NCBI GenBank assembly: GCA_965216755.1
Contig: CBDCGL010000011.1
Location: forward strand, 576,001-640,000
Length of the DNA stretch: 64,000 nucleotides
Direction: 5' to 3'
DNA from: Alphaproteobacteria bacterium
GTDB taxonomy: Bacteria; Pseudomonadota; Alphaproteobacteria; UBA7887
A model generated the notes under the pieces. That model ran no database searches. It was not told the origin of the DNA and saw only the letters and a program-made list of their open reading frames with translations. This document shows, piece after piece, positions 3 through 49,304 of the stretch. The position numbers and the translations under genes are program-made. Every line of letters starts with the position of its first letter. The first letter of the stretch is position 1.

Positions 3-371
3 GAGGAAGACAGTGTGATCGCGCAAACGCGTGCCGGCAAGCAAGTGCTCAATGTCAGCGGCGACGAAGAGGCGGTGGTGTGCGTACCGGTGGTCGGTGA
101 TACCGTCGCCACGGTTGGCGAGAACCACAAGATGACAGTCTTTCCGCTCGACGAACTGCCGGTGATGACGCGAGGGCGGGGCGTGATCATGCAGCGTTTC
201 AAGGATGGCGGCCTGTCGGACGCGCGCACTTTTGTGTTGAACGACGGTTTGAGCTGGCAAAGTGGCGGACGGACCCGCACCGTGACCGATCTCGCGCCCT
301 GGTACGGCAAACGCGGCGCCGCCGGCCGCCTGGCGCCGAAAGGCTTTCCACGCTCGCATAAGTTTGGTTAA
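3..371 (+). CDS. parC: DNA topoisomerase IV subunit A, C-terminal end (partial, runs off the window start)
   Basis: Open frame from position 3. AQTRAGKQVLNV, FPLDELPVMTRGRGVIMQRFKDGGLSD and GKRGAAGRLAPKGFP match the alphaproteobacterial ParC C-terminal domain. Confidence 0.9.
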   Translation, partial: EEDSVIAQTRAGKQVLNVSGDEEAVVCVPVVGDTVATVGENHKMTVFPLDELPVMTRGRGVIMQRFKDGGLSDARTFVLNDGLSWQSGGRTRTVTDLAPWYGKRGAAGRLAPKGFPRSHKFG

Positions 372-45024: not shown

Positions 45025-45948
45025 CTACAGATACGTACAATCACGGCAAGCCGGAACACAAAGGCGCGTCTTCGCATCGGCGCGAATGGCGCGTTGGGTC
45101 GGCGCGTTAAATATATCCAACAAGTTCTCATCGGCGACATTGCCGATTGGCCATTCGCCCCGGCCGTCCATGCAGCACATGGTCACCGCGCCTGTCGCCA
45201 TGATGGACAAGTCGAACCAACGGCGGCACGGTAAATCGGGTGCCTCGGCAAGCATGGCGCGTTCATCCACTTGTCCTTTCCAGTCTTTCCGCATGCTAAG
45301 CGTTGTCGTGAATGCTGGAAACATGTTGCGGCCCCACTGCATGAACTCTTCGTCCGTCGGGCTCCCGTCCATGACACGATTGATTGTAACCTGGTGCGGA
45401 AATGTACCCTCCGCCGTGAGTCGGTGCAGGAGTCGCAATCGGTCAACCGTCCGGTCGAAGGGCATGTGCATAAGTGTTTCATAGGGTTCCCGCCTGTGGT
45501 CGTTGAGTGAAATGACCAACGAGGTCACGTTCTCAATCGTGGCGAGGCGCCGCAAGACTGGCTCTGTAAATGCGGAGCCGTTCGAAAATAATGATAGTTG
45601 GGCATTCGGCAGCCGCACATTGACTTGGTGAAGAACCTCTACAAGTCGTTTGTCGAGAAATGGTTCGTTGACTTTGTATGGCGCTAGGGTGAAGGGGACT
45701 GATTGAGGAATGGCACTGAGATCGTCGATGATCTTCTCGATCAGTGCATCTGACATGCGTATTCCCTTGCGATCCAACGTCGGATACGGACAGAAATTGC
45801 ATGCGGCGTTGCAGACAGCCAGCGTCTCAAGATGCACGTGGCGCGGCCAGTCAATGTAAGACGATTCGCGATATGCTCTTACATCGGAGACGATGCTCCG
45901 AATGTGCTCCAAAATCCAAGCGCCGTCCATCGGCCGAAACCACGTCAA
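45025..45948 (-). CDS. Radical SAM protein with SPASM/twitch domain
   Basis: CNAACNFC and C-terminal PC...GAVTMCCMD...IGNV...C..ACRDC. Start may be 45930. Confidence 0.88.
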   Translation of the reverse strand: MTWFRPMDGAWILEHIRSIVSDVRAYRESSYIDWPRHVHLETLAVCNAACNFCPYPTLDRKGIRMSDALIEKIIDDLSAIPQSVPFTLAPYKVNEPFLDKRLVEVLHQVNVRLPNAQLSLFSNGSAFTEPVLRRLATIENVTSLVISLNDHRREPYETLMHMPFDRTVDRLRLLHRLTAEGTFPHQVTINRVMDGSPTDEEFMQWGRNMFPAFTTTLSMRKDWKGQVDERAMLAEAPDLPCRRWFDLSIMATGAVTMCCMDGRGEWPIGNVADENLLDIFNAPTQRAIRADAKTRLCVPACRDCTYL

Positions 45949-46024: not shown

Positions 46025-47242
46025 TCAGTCTTTTGCCTTGTTGTACGGCGAATAGTGGGCACCAACTGCGGTGATCTCGTAGTCGATTTCATCGCGCTCG
46101 CGTTCGAGATAGTCGGCGACCGCCCGGCGGAACCCTGTGTCGGCGATCCAATGCGCGCTGTAAGTCAGGCGTGGCAAATAACCACGATGGACCTTGTGTG
46201 GTCCCTGTGCGCCGGCTTCGACATGCTTCAGCCCGTGGTCAATAGCAAATTCTATAGCTTGGTAATAACACGCTTCAAAATGAAGACAATCGTGGTCCTC
46301 GATGCAGCCCCAATTTCGACCGTAAAGTGTATCTGTGCCGATAAAGTTGAGCGCGCCGGCAATATAGCGGCCACCGCGGCGGCACATCACAAGGGCAACC
46401 TTGTCAGCCATCTTGTCATGGATAATATCGAAAAAACTGCGGGTCAGGTAGGGTGATCCCCACTTGCGGCTCCCGGTATCCGTATAGAATCGGAAAAAGG
46501 CATCCCAATGTTCGGGCTTGAGATCGGAACCCGTCAAAACCTGTATGTCGATACCGGCGGCGACGGCGGTTGCGCGTTCTTTGCGGATCGTCTTGCGCCG
46601 GCGTGCCGTGAGCACGCGCAAGAAATCGTCGAAACGCTCATAGTTGTCATTATGCCAGTGGAATTGCTCACCGGTCCGCCGTAGAAAGCCGCACTCGCCC
46701 ATCAGCCGCCATTCATCTTCGGTCGGAAAAGTCACATGAAGCGACGAAACACCGAACCTCTCGCCCACTTGCACCGCCGCGTTGATCAATGCCAGCTGGT
46801 GACGTTCGCGAAGCGGGCCCGGGCGCGTCAATAGACGCGGGCCGGTGACCGGCGTAAACGGTACCGATGCCTGCAGTTTTGGATAGTAGCGGCCGCCGGC
46901 GCGTTCAAAGGCGTGTGCCCATGAATGGTCGAAGACATACTCGCCCTGAGAATGGTTTTTGAGATACAGCGGCAGGGCACCGAGCAGTTCGCCGTCGCTG
47001 TCTTCCAAGAGCACATGCTGGGGCAGCCAGCCGGTCTCGGCTGCGCAAGAACCGCTTTCTTCCAAGGCCAGAAGAAAGGCATGACTCAAAAATGGGTTGT
47101 CGCTGCCCGCACAGGCGTCCCAGGCGGCTTCCTGAACCTGGCCTAGGTCGTCAACCGTGCGCGCGGTCATCGCCTGGCGCTCATGTGACTCGACCGGCCT
47201 TGCGGGTTGCACGCGCGCGGCGTGGCGTCGCTCAGCGGTCAT
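46025..47242 (-). CDS. FemAB-like GNAT family protein (DUF482)
   Basis: NPFLSHAFL, HSQGEYVFDHSWA, YYPKLQ..VPFTPVTG, LHFEACYYQ and EAGAQG. Start may be 47170. Confidence 0.9.
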   Translation of the reverse strand: MTAERRHAARVQPARPVESHERQAMTARTVDDLGQVQEAAWDACAGSDNPFLSHAFLLALEESGSCAAETGWLPQHVLLEDSDGELLGALPLYLKNHSQGEYVFDHSWAHAFERAGGRYYPKLQASVPFTPVTGPRLLTRPGPLRERHQLALINAAVQVGERFGVSSLHVTFPTEDEWRLMGECGFLRRTGEQFHWHNDNYERFDDFLRVLTARRRKTIRKERATAVAAGIDIQVLTGSDLKPEHWDAFFRFYTDTGSRKWGSPYLTRSFFDIIHDKMADKVALVMCRRGGRYIAGALNFIGTDTLYGRNWGCIEDHDCLHFEACYYQAIEFAIDHGLKHVEAGAQGPHKVHRGYLPRLTYSAHWIADTGFRRAVADYLERERDEIDYEITAVGAHYSPYNKAKD

Positions 47243-47390
47243 GGGCCACCGCTGTTGCGGCTGCGCCGTGGCTTCGGGGGATACGCACAGCTAGAGCGGC
47301 GCCCGGCCCTGCGGGTTCGCGGCCCGGCGGGCGCCCCGCAATGGGAATCCATGTGGACGACCACATTGGTCGGCCGACTTGCCCGATGCG

Positions 47391-47467
47391 CTCGTGCGGT
47401 GGATCGGACGTTCGCTTGATCTCGCAGCGAGCACCAGAGCGAACGTCCGATCCGTGAACCGCACGAG
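47391..47467. repeat. Hairpin 1 of the CTAG element
   Basis: 10-bp stem (47391-400/47458-67), 3'-side bulge GTGA, perfect 16-bp stem (47401-16/47438-53), 21-nt loop. Confidence 0.9.
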
Positions 47468-47480
47468 ATCCAAATATTCG

Positions 47481-47557
47481 GCTCGTGTCCTGACGAAACC
47501 GAAGTTCGTAAGGTGCCTGGCGTCAGACGTGACGAACTTCGGTTTCGGGACACGAGC
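47481..47557. repeat. Hairpin 2 of the CTAG element
   Basis: 10-bp stem (47481-90/47548-57), 5'-side bulge TGA, perfect 16-bp stem (47494-509/47532-47), 22-nt loop. Confidence 0.9.
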
Positions 47558-47635
47558 ATCGCGCTGCGCTGCCCTTCGCGTGGATCGCCATGCCCGGCCG
47601 CGAACAGAATTGATTCAATATTATCGGACACTGCT

Positions 47636-48109
47636 CTAGGCCACTGAAATTTCGAAGATCCCGTCGGCCTCGACAGCCACATTGCGGGGCAACACATTGG
47701 TTCCGACGGCGAACCGAGCATGCCGACCCGCGTCGCCGAACACATCGACCATCAGATCGGAAATTCCATTGGCGACTTCCGGCTGTCGATCAAACATATC
47801 GGGGCAATTGATGAACACGCCCAGTTTGACGCACCGACGCACGCGGTCCAAGTCGCCGTCGCAGGCGACCTTGAGTTGTGCAAGCATGTTGAGACCGCAC
47901 AGGCGCGCGGCGCTTTTTCCTTCATCAACCGTGAAATCCTTGCCGACCTTGCCAACGTAGCGTACTTCGCCATTCCAAAACGTTATTTGGCCGGCGATGA
48001 ACACAAGGTTCCCGGTGGTCACGAATGGTATGTAGTTCGCGGCCGGCGTGGCCGGCTGCGGCAGCTCAATACGACTTTCGGCGAGGCGTGCGTCGATTGT
48101 ACCTGGCAT
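47636..48109 (-). CDS. RidA/YjgF family protein
   Basis: PAANYIPF, FIAGQ, VANGISDL, GRHARFAVG and LPRNVAVE. Start moved to ATG 48109 after GGAGG. Confidence 0.9.
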   Translation of the reverse strand: MPGTIDARLAESRIELPQPATPAANYIPFVTTGNLVFIAGQITFWNGEVRYVGKVGKDFTVDEGKSAARLCGLNMLAQLKVACDGDLDRVRRCVKLGVFINCPDMFDRQPEVANGISDLMVDVFGDAGRHARFAVGTNVLPRNVAVEADGIFEISVA

Positions 48110-48272
48110 GGTCGATCCTCCGAATGCATCCGTGCCACCATAACGCCGTCGGGCGCCGTGGTTCCAGTGAACCGTGGCTTGCGCCATGGTGGCAGCCACA
48201 CGTTCGGCGACAGTTCACCATGATTCATTGTATACTGCTTCGGTTACGACTGACGGGGCAGCCGAACTTTAT

Positions 48273-49304
48273 ATGACAACGCCAAAGCTCGATGGTCTGC
48301 ATATGCCGGCCGAATGGGATGCGCACAGCAAGTGTTGGATGGCGTGGCCGAGCAATCGCGCGGTCTGGGGCGAAACGTTGGTGGCGGCGCAAGCTGCCTA
48401 TATCAATGTCGCGCAGGCCATCGCGGATTTCGAACCGGTGACAATCGTTGCCGATCCGGCGTCCGCCGCCGATGTCTCACTTCGCGGTGGGCGCGGGATC
48501 AGCGTTTTTGCCTGTCCGCACGACGACGCTTGGATCCGTGACAATGGGCCCACATTTGTCACAGATGGCGCTGGCGGCCTGGCCGGTGTCGATTGGCAAT
48601 GGAATGCATGGGGCGAGATCTACCCGGACTACGAAAACGATGCGGCGGTTGCGCGCGAGATCCTGTCGAACCTCAGAATGCGGCGCTACGAAGCGCCGTT
48701 GGTGTTGGAAGGGGGATCAATCCACGTCGACGGCGAAGGCACAGCCTTGACGACCGAGGAATGCCTGCTCAATCCGAACCGCAACGCGAAATTGGATCGC
48801 CACGCGATCGAGGACCTCTTACGTGCCTATTTGGGCGTTGAAGCAATCATCTGGCTTGCGGGTGGCCTACAAGACGACGAAACCGACGGCCACGTCGACA
48901 ACATCGCGTGTTTCGCCCGGCCAGGAGTTGTGATCGTGCAGTCGGAAGCCGATCCGAACGACGGCAACTACACGGTCCTTCAAGAGAATTTGGCTCGTTT
49001 GCGGGCGGCGACGGATGCGCGGGGGCGGCAAATTGACATTATTGAACTGCCGCAGCCGCGCCGCGTTGACCATGGCGAGGCGCGATTGGCGTTGTCATAT
49101 GTGAATTTCTATTTGGCCAACGGAGCCGTGATTGCGCCGCAATTCGACGACGCCGAAGACTCGCGTGCGTTGAACTTGTTGAAAGACACGTTCCAAGACC
49201 GCAGCATCGTGCCGGTCGATGTGCTGGACATCGTAAAGGGCGGCGGTGGCATTCATTGTATCACGCAGCAGCAGCCAGCCGGCGAGGCATTGCCGCCGCA
49301 ATAG
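48273..49304 (+). CDS. aguA: Agmatine deiminase
   Basis: MPAEW, DAWIRDNGP, LEGGSIHVDGEG, DETDGHVDN, SYVNFY and GGGGIHCITQQQP. Confidence 0.92.
   Translation: MTTPKLDGLHMPAEWDAHSKCWMAWPSNRAVWGETLVAAQAAYINVAQAIADFEPVTIVADPASAADVSLRGGRGISVFACPHDDAWIRDNGPTFVTDGAGGLAGVDWQWNAWGEIYPDYENDAAVAREILSNLRMRRYEAPLVLEGGSIHVDGEGTALTTEECLLNPNRNAKLDRHAIEDLLRAYLGVEAIIWLAGGLQDDETDGHVDNIACFARPGVVIVQSEADPNDGNYTVLQENLARLRAATDARGRQIDIIELPQPRRVDHGEARLALSYVNFYLANGAVIAPQFDDAEDSRALNLLKDTFQDRSIVPVDVLDIVKGGGGIHCITQQQPAGEALPPQ

Follow-up and report, generated by a model that had tools for sequence, protein, structure and literature searches.

The dimers of repetitive extragenic palindromic (REP) sequences (REPINs, BIME) consist of inverted, imperfectly palindromic units placed on both sides of a short conserved spacer, which fold separately or together; as described in PMC3337134, PMC3116915 and PMC3733652 (the last on head-to-head heterodimers), they are scattered between genes, in many cases just past the end of a gene, and frequently show compensatory changes. 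The object of this study is a pair of mirrored hairpins, hereafter the twin, carried by a stretch of 64,000 nucleotides (the window; contig CBDCGL010000011.1, positions 576,001 to 640,000, assembly GCA_965216755.1) of an alphaproteobacterium of the lineage UBA7887. The twin too is an inverted doublet around a spacer with compensatory changes. Its copy number, its boundaries, its nesting in a larger repeat, its wide distribution and its covariation are direct observations, and we consider it probable that it is a non-autonomous mobile palindromic element, REP-dimer-like and MITE-like (miniature inverted-repeat transposable element, MITE), nested in another MITE. Disparities with REP dimers nevertheless appear: the units of the twin measure 75-77 nt and those of REPs roughly 20-40 nt; its feet are a YTAR-type tetranucleotide and not the GTAG/CGTC heads of the families described in PMC3733652; no REP-associated tyrosine transposase (RAYT) is linked to it, three of the five other carrier genomes being without Y1_Tnp; and its flanks suggest a duplication of TA, whereas REPINs make none.

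The Correia elements (CREE) of Neisseria and the ERIC-like MITEs resemble the twin in being small and gene-less, with TA-flanked inverted ends, in lying in or beside transcription units and in giving long RNA hairpins; the centre of Correia-type elements is reported to bind IHF, and RNase III to act on their transcript (PMC2649163, PMC2229807). The twin is set apart from these descriptions by terminal repeats of only ~7 nt, by a symmetry made of two self-folding hairpins instead of one long fold-back, and by the lack of a matching insertion sequence (IS) in the genomes examined. Of the Brucella repeats Bru-RS1 and Bru-RS2, related palindromic sequences, it is described that they are preferred landing sites of the 842-bp IS5-type element IS711, which duplicates TA in YTAR (PMC2266754, PMC10800456); compared by description they differ from the twin, with units of 103 and 106 bp that stand 155 bp apart in one case (PMC10800456). 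A parallel exists in the window's genome, where an 835-bp IS5-type element sits in the terminal tetranucleotide of the MITE that hosts the twin, in at least three of eight cases.

RIME1 of Rhizobium is said to be a 108-bp element with two large palindromes. On this description it is, like the twin, a small intergenic alphaproteobacterial repeat built on two large palindromes, and it is shorter; a BLAST search of a twin against 72,556 plasmids matched no Rhizobium or Sinorhizobium replicon, which is indirect evidence that the two are different. PATEs, gene-less elements derived from IS200/IS605, carry hairpins in the same orientation on one strand, have no inverted ends, make no duplication and require a Y1 transposase. 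The hairpins of the twin are mirrored, in contrast, and Y1 genes are lacking in three of five carriers. The likeness lies in the subterminal hairpin at each end of a PATE, and a mobilisation as single-stranded DNA, as in PATEs, would explain selection on the fold (PMC6006769).

The first-pass annotation of the window had foreseen that the hairpins might belong to an already described repeat family. They do belong to a repeat family, but no described family was found to match it, either in Rfam 15 or in the literature searched on alphaproteobacterial MITEs, Bru-RS, RIME and IS711 and, among the matches listed, on the motif words of the twin. In the comparison with Rfam that had been advised, no family reached its gathering threshold, the best score of the window copy being 29.3 bits against a threshold of 90 (a microRNA model), and neither a full copy nor five twins from other genomes reached a gathering score. 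A 2024 review of MITEs does not treat nested elements, IS630 or a YTAR-type target. On these searches the twin hairpin appears to be a new repeat family of the REP-dimer/MITE kind, set apart from Bru-RS and RIME1 by their descriptions.

The first-pass annotation had described two 77-nt hairpins 13 nt apart, with their stems, bulges and loops, and this description is correct in every detail when checked on the sequence and with an inverted-repeat finder (Table 1). In each hairpin a basal stem of 10 bp is continued by an upper stem of 16 bp without mismatches; the finder returns the basal stems as its repeats I5 (100% complementary) and I4, and the upper stems as I2 (100%) and the core of I1. 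The bulges, of 4 nt in hairpin 1 and 3 nt in hairpin 2, each face the partner hairpin, and the loops measure 21 and 22 nt respectively. A recount confirmed that the reverse complement of hairpin 1 matches hairpin 2 at 11 of 15 positions. Both strands were folded, as had been advised, and the predicted twin-hairpin fold is far above chance: as RNA, a 191-nt stretch gives -108.5 kcal/mol on the plus strand (z -8.9) and -117 kcal/mol on the minus strand (z -9.9), with 0 of 200 shuffles equal in both cases, and as DNA the single hairpins give -34.7 and -32.1 kcal/mol (z -8.95 and -8.76; 0 of 200 shuffles). The complementary pentamers noticed in the two loops are present (47431-47435 and 47512-47516), but at chance level: a 5-nt run is equalled or exceeded in 81 of 300 shuffles and is unconserved in the 24 other sequences examined. 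This complementarity survives from the mirror homology that links the two loops. A kissing-loop interaction was considered and rejected, the complementarity being at chance level and absent from most other sequences.

In the window's genome hairpin 2 aligns with the reverse complement of hairpin 1 over stems and loops. The 15 upper-stem pairs that the two hairpins share are 93.5% paired in this genome, with six pairs changed on both sides; between the consensus sequences of hairpins 1 and 2, five of the 15 pairs differ and all five are compensated. We extended the comparison to 25 sequences from six genomes (alignment A4), on which the structure was transferred from the row of the window (51 pairs, 1,258 cells). 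In this alignment 95.8% of the cells are paired and 29 of the 51 pairs are changed on both sides, counts that overstate the number of independent events because the rows are the hand-picked clearest twins and the copies within a genome are related. None of 500 shuffles reaches any of the five measures, and slid controls give 21.7-43.3% paired cells and 2-12 double-changed pairs. When one arm of a hairpin changes, the other thus changes to match and the shape is retained, and the proposal that structure is maintained over sequence holds.

The twin had been considered, among other options, as a feature of the ridA/FemAB-like (DUF482) locus. This is not supported: it is a dispersed repeat, with 15 twins in the genome. 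A 181-nt query returned 13 full-length matches at 95-100% identity, and further partial ones, from this 5.0-Mb genome; the 167-nt twin has 14 further copies there, nearly all at the tip of a larger repeat of ~464 bp. This composite, in which a host MITE carries the twin-hairpin module at its tip, has 10 complete copies, and the host counts more than 40 partial ones. Its boundaries were drawn from copies aligned with their flanks, and a profile of 464 positions was made from nine full copies. Its ends are inverted repeats of ~30 nt, and TA stands on both sides of all ten full copies, usually within a palindromic YTAR-type tetranucleotide. Host (~464 bp) and module (167 bp) are both below the ~600 bp usual for MITEs, gene-less, dispersed and multi-copy. 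The terminal repeats of the host pair with each other (helix 1, 29 pairs, 97% paired over 16 copies); those of the module are limited to ~7 nt in the strict sense, its outer hairpin arms being mirror relatives.

A census made with a module profile gives the state of each copy. Fourteen twins lie inside the host MITE (13 young, one diverged) and one diverged twin lies outside recognisable MITE arms; one copy ends after hairpin 1, and seven keep hairpin 2 only, hairpin 1 being partly or wholly deleted. Counted by hairpin, hairpin 1 is present in 15 copies and hairpin 2 in 22, including the seven hairpin-2-only forms. The deletion joints of the latter coincide with short direct repeats or with the base of the upper stem, which fits the slippage expected across palindromes. 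At least 12 short host-MITE copies are without both hairpins, whose exact place is taken by a small hairpin loop, and solitary MITE arms are numerous. We also observed an open frame that runs through nearly the whole composite, its stop being the terminal TAG in 12 of 13 translated copies; it appears as an open reading frame of 138-185 codons at 8 of 14 copies (e.g. L002:1430-1900 on the minus strand, and window 47379-47639 on the plus strand). Its translation is arginine-rich and looks non-coding, and the chance of one such frame is roughly 6%.

The host MITE exists elsewhere without the module. Metagenome contigs scanned with the exact pattern of its right end gave 35 loci, 31 of the host-MITE family and four chance matches. 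The twin-hairpin module is in none of the 35, and 15 have both arms in the short form; TA flanks most of these metagenome copies. An exact-pattern scan of genome contigs for the left end gave no locus. Fourteen metagenome copies (loci among L066-L093) were aligned with two short copies of the window's genome (C11:2195069 and C11:2075678; alignment A2), and RNAalifold returned a structure of 95 pairs in which the termini pair together and enclose two long hairpins, one left and one right. This structure is paired in 96.0% of cells, with 37 of 95 pairs changed on both sides, against 35.5-39.1% and 6-13 double-changed pairs in slid controls, a contrast that is inflated, since the alignment tested had also yielded the structure; on four of five measures the observed value is not reached by any of 500 shuffles. 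The twin-hairpin module of the window lies in the apical loop of the last helix of this structure, which is invariant (Table 1). In some MITE copies a different hairpin loop has gained a further 16 nt by insertion (A2 columns 141-157), which suggests that loops are favoured entry points.

A covariance model (R1; 23 pairs) was built from 31 hairpin sequences of this genome, hairpin 2 being taken together with the reverse complement of hairpin 1. On the genome itself it recovers the known copies and one weak extra match. Searched against 140 other alphaproteobacterial genomes, one per genus (E up to 0.01), it has matches in 10, six with 17-33 (both strands counted) and four with 1-3. For G101, G038, G025, G111 and G134 the matches are paired, in opposite orientation. 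They form there a stand-alone element of ~165 bp in ordinary intergenic DNA, with the same order and orientation as in the window and bulges facing the spacer, and with a palindromic YTAR-type tetranucleotide at each foot in most. The six genomes agree in where the bulge lies and in the lengths of the loop (20-23 nt) and of the spacer (13-14 nt), and TA flanks most twins examined. G101 carries 10 twins and one single hairpin, its copies being 97-99% identical within a subfamily, and G038 seven twins and two singles. The form present in G085, a single hairpin of ~55 nt (e.g. L104:1372-1426; ~33 model matches) with the same stem core and bulge and a tiny loop, is a REP-like singlet of the twin-hairpin unit.

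A sensitive BLAST of a G038 copy against the 72,556 plasmids returned only eight records, from Roseibium/Labrenzia. The neighbours of the element in Roseibium algicola are a gene for a thioesterase and one for an SDR, and the SDR coding sequence ends in the last four bases of the element; 10 Roseibium/Labrenzia plasmids carry a twin at this site, where it is unannotated. The composite, searched at BLAST level, was found neither in plasmids nor in 22 other genomes of the order, nor in 40 relatives except for a 63-nt match in G023 (E 3.6e-4). Only the covariance model reached relatives where BLAST-level searches found nothing.

The window copy corresponds to positions 124-463 of the 464-position profile (nhmmer), and it is the sole young copy in which 52 of 52 pairs are Watson-Crick. 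The nine nucleotides 47291-47299 at its left edge are identical to the first nine of the left end of the hairpin-less copy C11:3014970, which makes an internal deletion of its left arm likely. Without the element the RidA-like and FemAB-like genes would stand ~50 bp apart. Two ordinary-looking genes were noted nearby, for a radical-SAM/SPASM enzyme (window 45028-45948, minus strand) and for a Porphyromonas-type peptidyl-arginine (agmatine) deiminase (window 48174-49301, plus strand).

Table 1. Coordinates of the twin hairpins, of the repeat that carries them, of the adjoining genes (window positions) and of the IS5-type copies of the same genome (C11 positions).
Feature	Position	Strand	Remarks
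Composite repeat copy (host MITE with twin-hairpin module at tip)	47292..47638	+	TA at 47292-47293 and 47637-47638; most of left arm absent
Host-MITE left-arm remnant	47298..47390	+	47381-47388 is the 5' side of the apical stem (helix 12, alignment A2)
Hairpin 1	47391..47467	+	basal stem 47391-47400/47458-47467; upper stem 47401-47416/47438-47453; bulge 47454-47457; loop 47417-47437
A/T-rich spacer, 13 nt	47468..47480	+	length 13-14 nt in all twins examined
Hairpin 2	47481..47557	+	basal stem 47481-47490/47548-47557; bulge 47491-47493; upper stem 47494-47509/47532-47547; loop 47510-47531
Host-MITE right arm	47558..47636	+	47558-47565 is the 3' side of the apical stem; last ~30 nt form the right terminal inverted repeat
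TAG stop of RidA-like gene	47636..47638	-	flanking TA plus first base of repeat
YjgF/RidA-type gene	ORF (open reading frame) 47636..48199 (gene 47639-48199)	-	Pfam YjgF_endoribonc / Ribonuc_L-PSP
FemAB_like gene (PF04339; DUF482)	46028..47242	-	co-directional with RidA-like gene, downstream; start 49 bp past left end of repeat
IS5-type copies	C11: 172064, 403528, 1152510, 1697680, 2523362, 3207918, 3879401, 4491069		outside window

On the reading that we favour, the twin would be a non-autonomous mobile palindromic element of ~167 bp, made of two 75-77-nt units mirrored around the 13-nt A/T-rich spacer. The family is spread over several alphaproteobacterial lineages, where it stands alone in intergenic DNA with feet of the YTAR type in most genomes. 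In the window's genome one twin lineage lies in the apical loop of a larger, unrelated MITE with terminal inverted repeats and has multiplied with it; the window holds a left-deleted composite, placed between co-directional genes at the YTAR tetranucleotide in which the RidA-like gene has its TAG stop. Insertion would take place into the tetranucleotide with duplication of TA, in the manner of IS630-type and IS5/IS427-type elements. The hairpins would persist as propagating lineages need them, whether the mobilising enzyme acts on single-stranded DNA in folded form or binds them as a pair of inverted sites, and single inserted copies would be unprotected and decay. At this locus the element would be a passenger, and a block to 3' exonucleases or a target for double-strand RNases on the ridA/FemAB-like transcript would be a by-product. 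Among the functional folds offered by the first-pass annotation, a substrate of a recombinase or transposase fits best, because the element is multi-copy, dispersed and gene-less.

The junctions are consistent with this mode of insertion. Compared with the loop of module-less copies, the filled junction differs as expected for an insertion into the tetranucleotide with TA duplication, if the loop is assumed to have changed at one base and each foot at one pair, in a compensated way; the same foot variant is present in some copies of G134, G025 and G085. The module thus appears, on these alignments, to have entered the loop of the MITE by this route. The same tetranucleotide receives other elements. 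An IS5-family element of ~835 bp has eight identical copies in the window's genome (Pfam DDE_Tnp_1, 163-aa open frame), flanked by TA in this palindromic tetranucleotide, those at a host-MITE end being exactly at that end. G101 carries a close relative of it (828 bp, 12 copies), and at the G101 locus L132 (~1140-1190) the terminal tetranucleotide of an IS5-like element has received an IS630-like one; several unrelated elements therefore use one target in G101 also. The first six bases of the host-MITE end resemble the end of the IS630-like element of G101, a weak hint that concerns the host MITE only, and in G025 a distance of 30 bp separates a twin from an IS5-type fragment.

Candidates for the mobilising enzyme were sought by domain and by shared ends. 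The five other carriers have Y1_Tnp in two cases, where these genes do not adjoin twins, DDE_3 in four and DDE_Tnp_1 in four. No mariner match (PF01359) was found in the window's genome, a blank that carries little weight because the same search matched none of 14 control genomes. No autonomous IS with the same ends was found in that genome, in the 35 metagenome loci or in G101. Four sites with MITE pieces 2.6-4 kb apart were inspected by eye as possible autonomous elements and held ordinary-looking open reading frames only; an IS-like gene (C11:200-202 kb) with a sequence close to the terminal repeat next to it showed nothing related. A RAYT/REPIN link was set aside, the Y1 gene of this genome having other hairpins and Y1_Tnp being lacking in three of five other carriers.

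Several of our results weigh against the mobile-element reading. The window's genome has no DDE_3 (IS630) match; its single Y1 (HUH) transposase gene (C11:3428600-3429520) has long A/T-rich hairpins on both flanks that are unlike the twin; and its IS5-type element has different ends. In G101 the ends of an 11-copy IS630-like and a 12-copy IS5-like element share with the twin only chance matches of 7-8 nt. G038, whose assembly is 99% complete in three contigs, has seven well-paired twins and no match to Y1_Tnp, DDE_3 or DDE_Tnp_1; the high pairing among its diverged copies would also fit a function for the host or a self-correcting mutation. A clean empty site was not found: the relatives of G101 are too diverged (the upstream gene is kept but ends differently), all 10 plasmids are filled, and the public contigs over the window end inside the repeat, none bridging it. 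Because of this, the case for TA duplication is made from the flanks and from one filled-versus-empty comparison, which is between paralogous MITE copies. Recombination between copies also moves the module, since the module is more uniform than the right arm and the window copy is a mosaic; an independent transposition of the module within this genome would be an additional route.

This last point brings in the best placed of the alternatives, that the twin is not mobile alone here and that, having entered the MITE once, it spread with the composite and by recombination or gene conversion. Recombination between copies certainly occurs. The mean pairwise identity of the module is 95.5% in this genome, against 85.5% for the surrounding right arm. 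The window copy has a right arm nearest to a module-less copy and a centre nearest to another subfamily, and the exchanged tract takes in part of the left arm; all 14 young or middle-aged twins, moreover, are at the same point of the MITE. A single entry nevertheless meets difficulties. In C11:3747440 the arms are only 46-48% (left) and 68-85% (right) identical to those of other copies while the module is 93-98% identical, which needs either a tight double exchange or a second site-specific insertion; one diverged twin is outside any recognisable MITE arm; and the element is clearly free-standing in other genomes. We regard a single entry as possible but doubtful.

The covariation itself may have another origin. 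Intra-strand template switching, which copies one arm of a quasi-palindrome onto the other, is described as creating and maintaining hairpins with apparent compensatory substitutions (PMC8794818), and the compensated changes would then be a mutational by-product. Such switching keeps or lengthens hairpins regardless of any use of the fold; it is compatible with a mobile element, and is a rival only of the claim that the fold is functional. Three observations are in its favour. Among broken pairs A-C is about as common as G-T, with 22 against 14 in A4 and 16 against 15 among the copies of the window's genome. All other hairpins of the host MITE covary too, as if long inverted repeats were homogenised. 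The copies of G038 stay paired although none of the three transposase families searched was found there: its seven copies, 69-84% identical, are 98.6% paired, with 16 of 20 variable pairs compensated.

The young copies of the window's genome give a different picture. The 12 others each have 1-4 pairs that are not Watson-Crick (G-T or mismatch) and no compensated change; one position varies on each arm in different young copies, and the matching combination is never present. The density of substitutions is 2.4% in stems and 3.1% at unpaired positions of the module. Old or diverged copies fold weakly (z -1.1 to -4.1) and have lost much of their upper stems. These data speak for decay after insertion, and against a fold that is specific to the locus or selected by the host in this genome. 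If there is a correction of one arm by the other, it is at best slow, because young copies hold unrepaired mismatches and old ones have lost their upper stems. Copying from arm to arm does not explain, either, the conserved position of the bulge and the conserved lengths of loop and spacer. Template switching as the source of the compensated changes seems unlikely to us.

A takeover by the host, which would use the element as a structural signal in RNA or DNA, is less likely still. The hairpins would act as a protective 3' stem-loop, a target of a double-strand RNase, a ribosome brake at the stop codon or a site for a nucleoid protein, roles of the kind proposed for REP/BIME and Correia elements. 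The predicted 26-bp stems would form in the ridA/FemAB-like transcript (minus strand, -117 kcal/mol), and several copies begin within a stop codon, which lies inside the terminal tetranucleotide in the window, in two other copies of this genome, in the Roseibium plasmid and in G101. The stems of G038 evolve at under half the rate of unpaired positions (15.6% against 34.8% divergence per copy pair). The 13-nt spacer may resemble an IHF-binding site, such as lies between the inverted units of elements of the BIME-1/RIP type. Correia elements are reported to be bound by IHF, and bound or cut by RNase III (PMC2649163). The copies of the twin in the window's genome have the placement typical of mobile palindromic elements, wedged between open reading frames, 5 of 14 between convergent genes, and the stop codons in the terminal tetranucleotide belong to the same pattern. 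Against a takeover, the orientation between co-directional genes is not fixed, three copies running against transcription and two with it. No terminator- or promoter-like site accompanies the element, the search for an intrinsic terminator or a sigma-70 promoter having given none; inserted copies decay here; and ~10-15 copies per genome is a low number, at loci that differ between genomes.

The new non-coding RNA suggested by the first-pass annotation, i.e. a free-standing small RNA gene of a new family, has strong covariation and a very stable fold for it, but is hardly credible for a sequence that is palindromic on both strands, multi-copy and variable in orientation, with no promoter- or terminator-like sites, no Rfam match and no excess of G-T over A-C, thus no sign of the RNA-type tolerance of wobble on one strand.

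Taking the family as a whole, we tentatively put forward a broader proposal, which may well prove wrong. The twin could represent a class-wide undescribed family that combines the anatomy of REP dimers with a TA-type insertion and needs no RAYT and no transposase of the IS630 or IS5 type. Its movement or maintenance would then fall to an enzyme that has so far not been tied to such repeats, perhaps a host protein that reads a bulged hairpin with a YTAR foot, and could parasitise the apical loop of another MITE.

The object is a selfish repeat and not a device of the ridA/FemAB-like locus, and this removes a false lead, that of hairpins made as a bespoke regulator of this gene pair. The model R1 and the alignments A3 and A4 provide a usable definition of a family absent from Rfam and from the annotation of the 10 Roseibium/Labrenzia plasmids with a twin, which should help to mask false predictions of small RNAs and riboswitches in alphaproteobacterial intergenic regions. 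Two features of the family deserve attention: one element, itself small, occupies exactly the apical loop of another, and three unrelated elements (host MITE, twin hairpin and IS5-type) use one palindromic tetranucleotide. Since either strand of this tetranucleotide includes a stop codon, insertions fall at the ends of genes and leave the protein unchanged. Finally, the compensated changes of G038, in a genome where none of the three transposase families searched was found, are a compact test case for selection on the fold against self-correction of palindromes.

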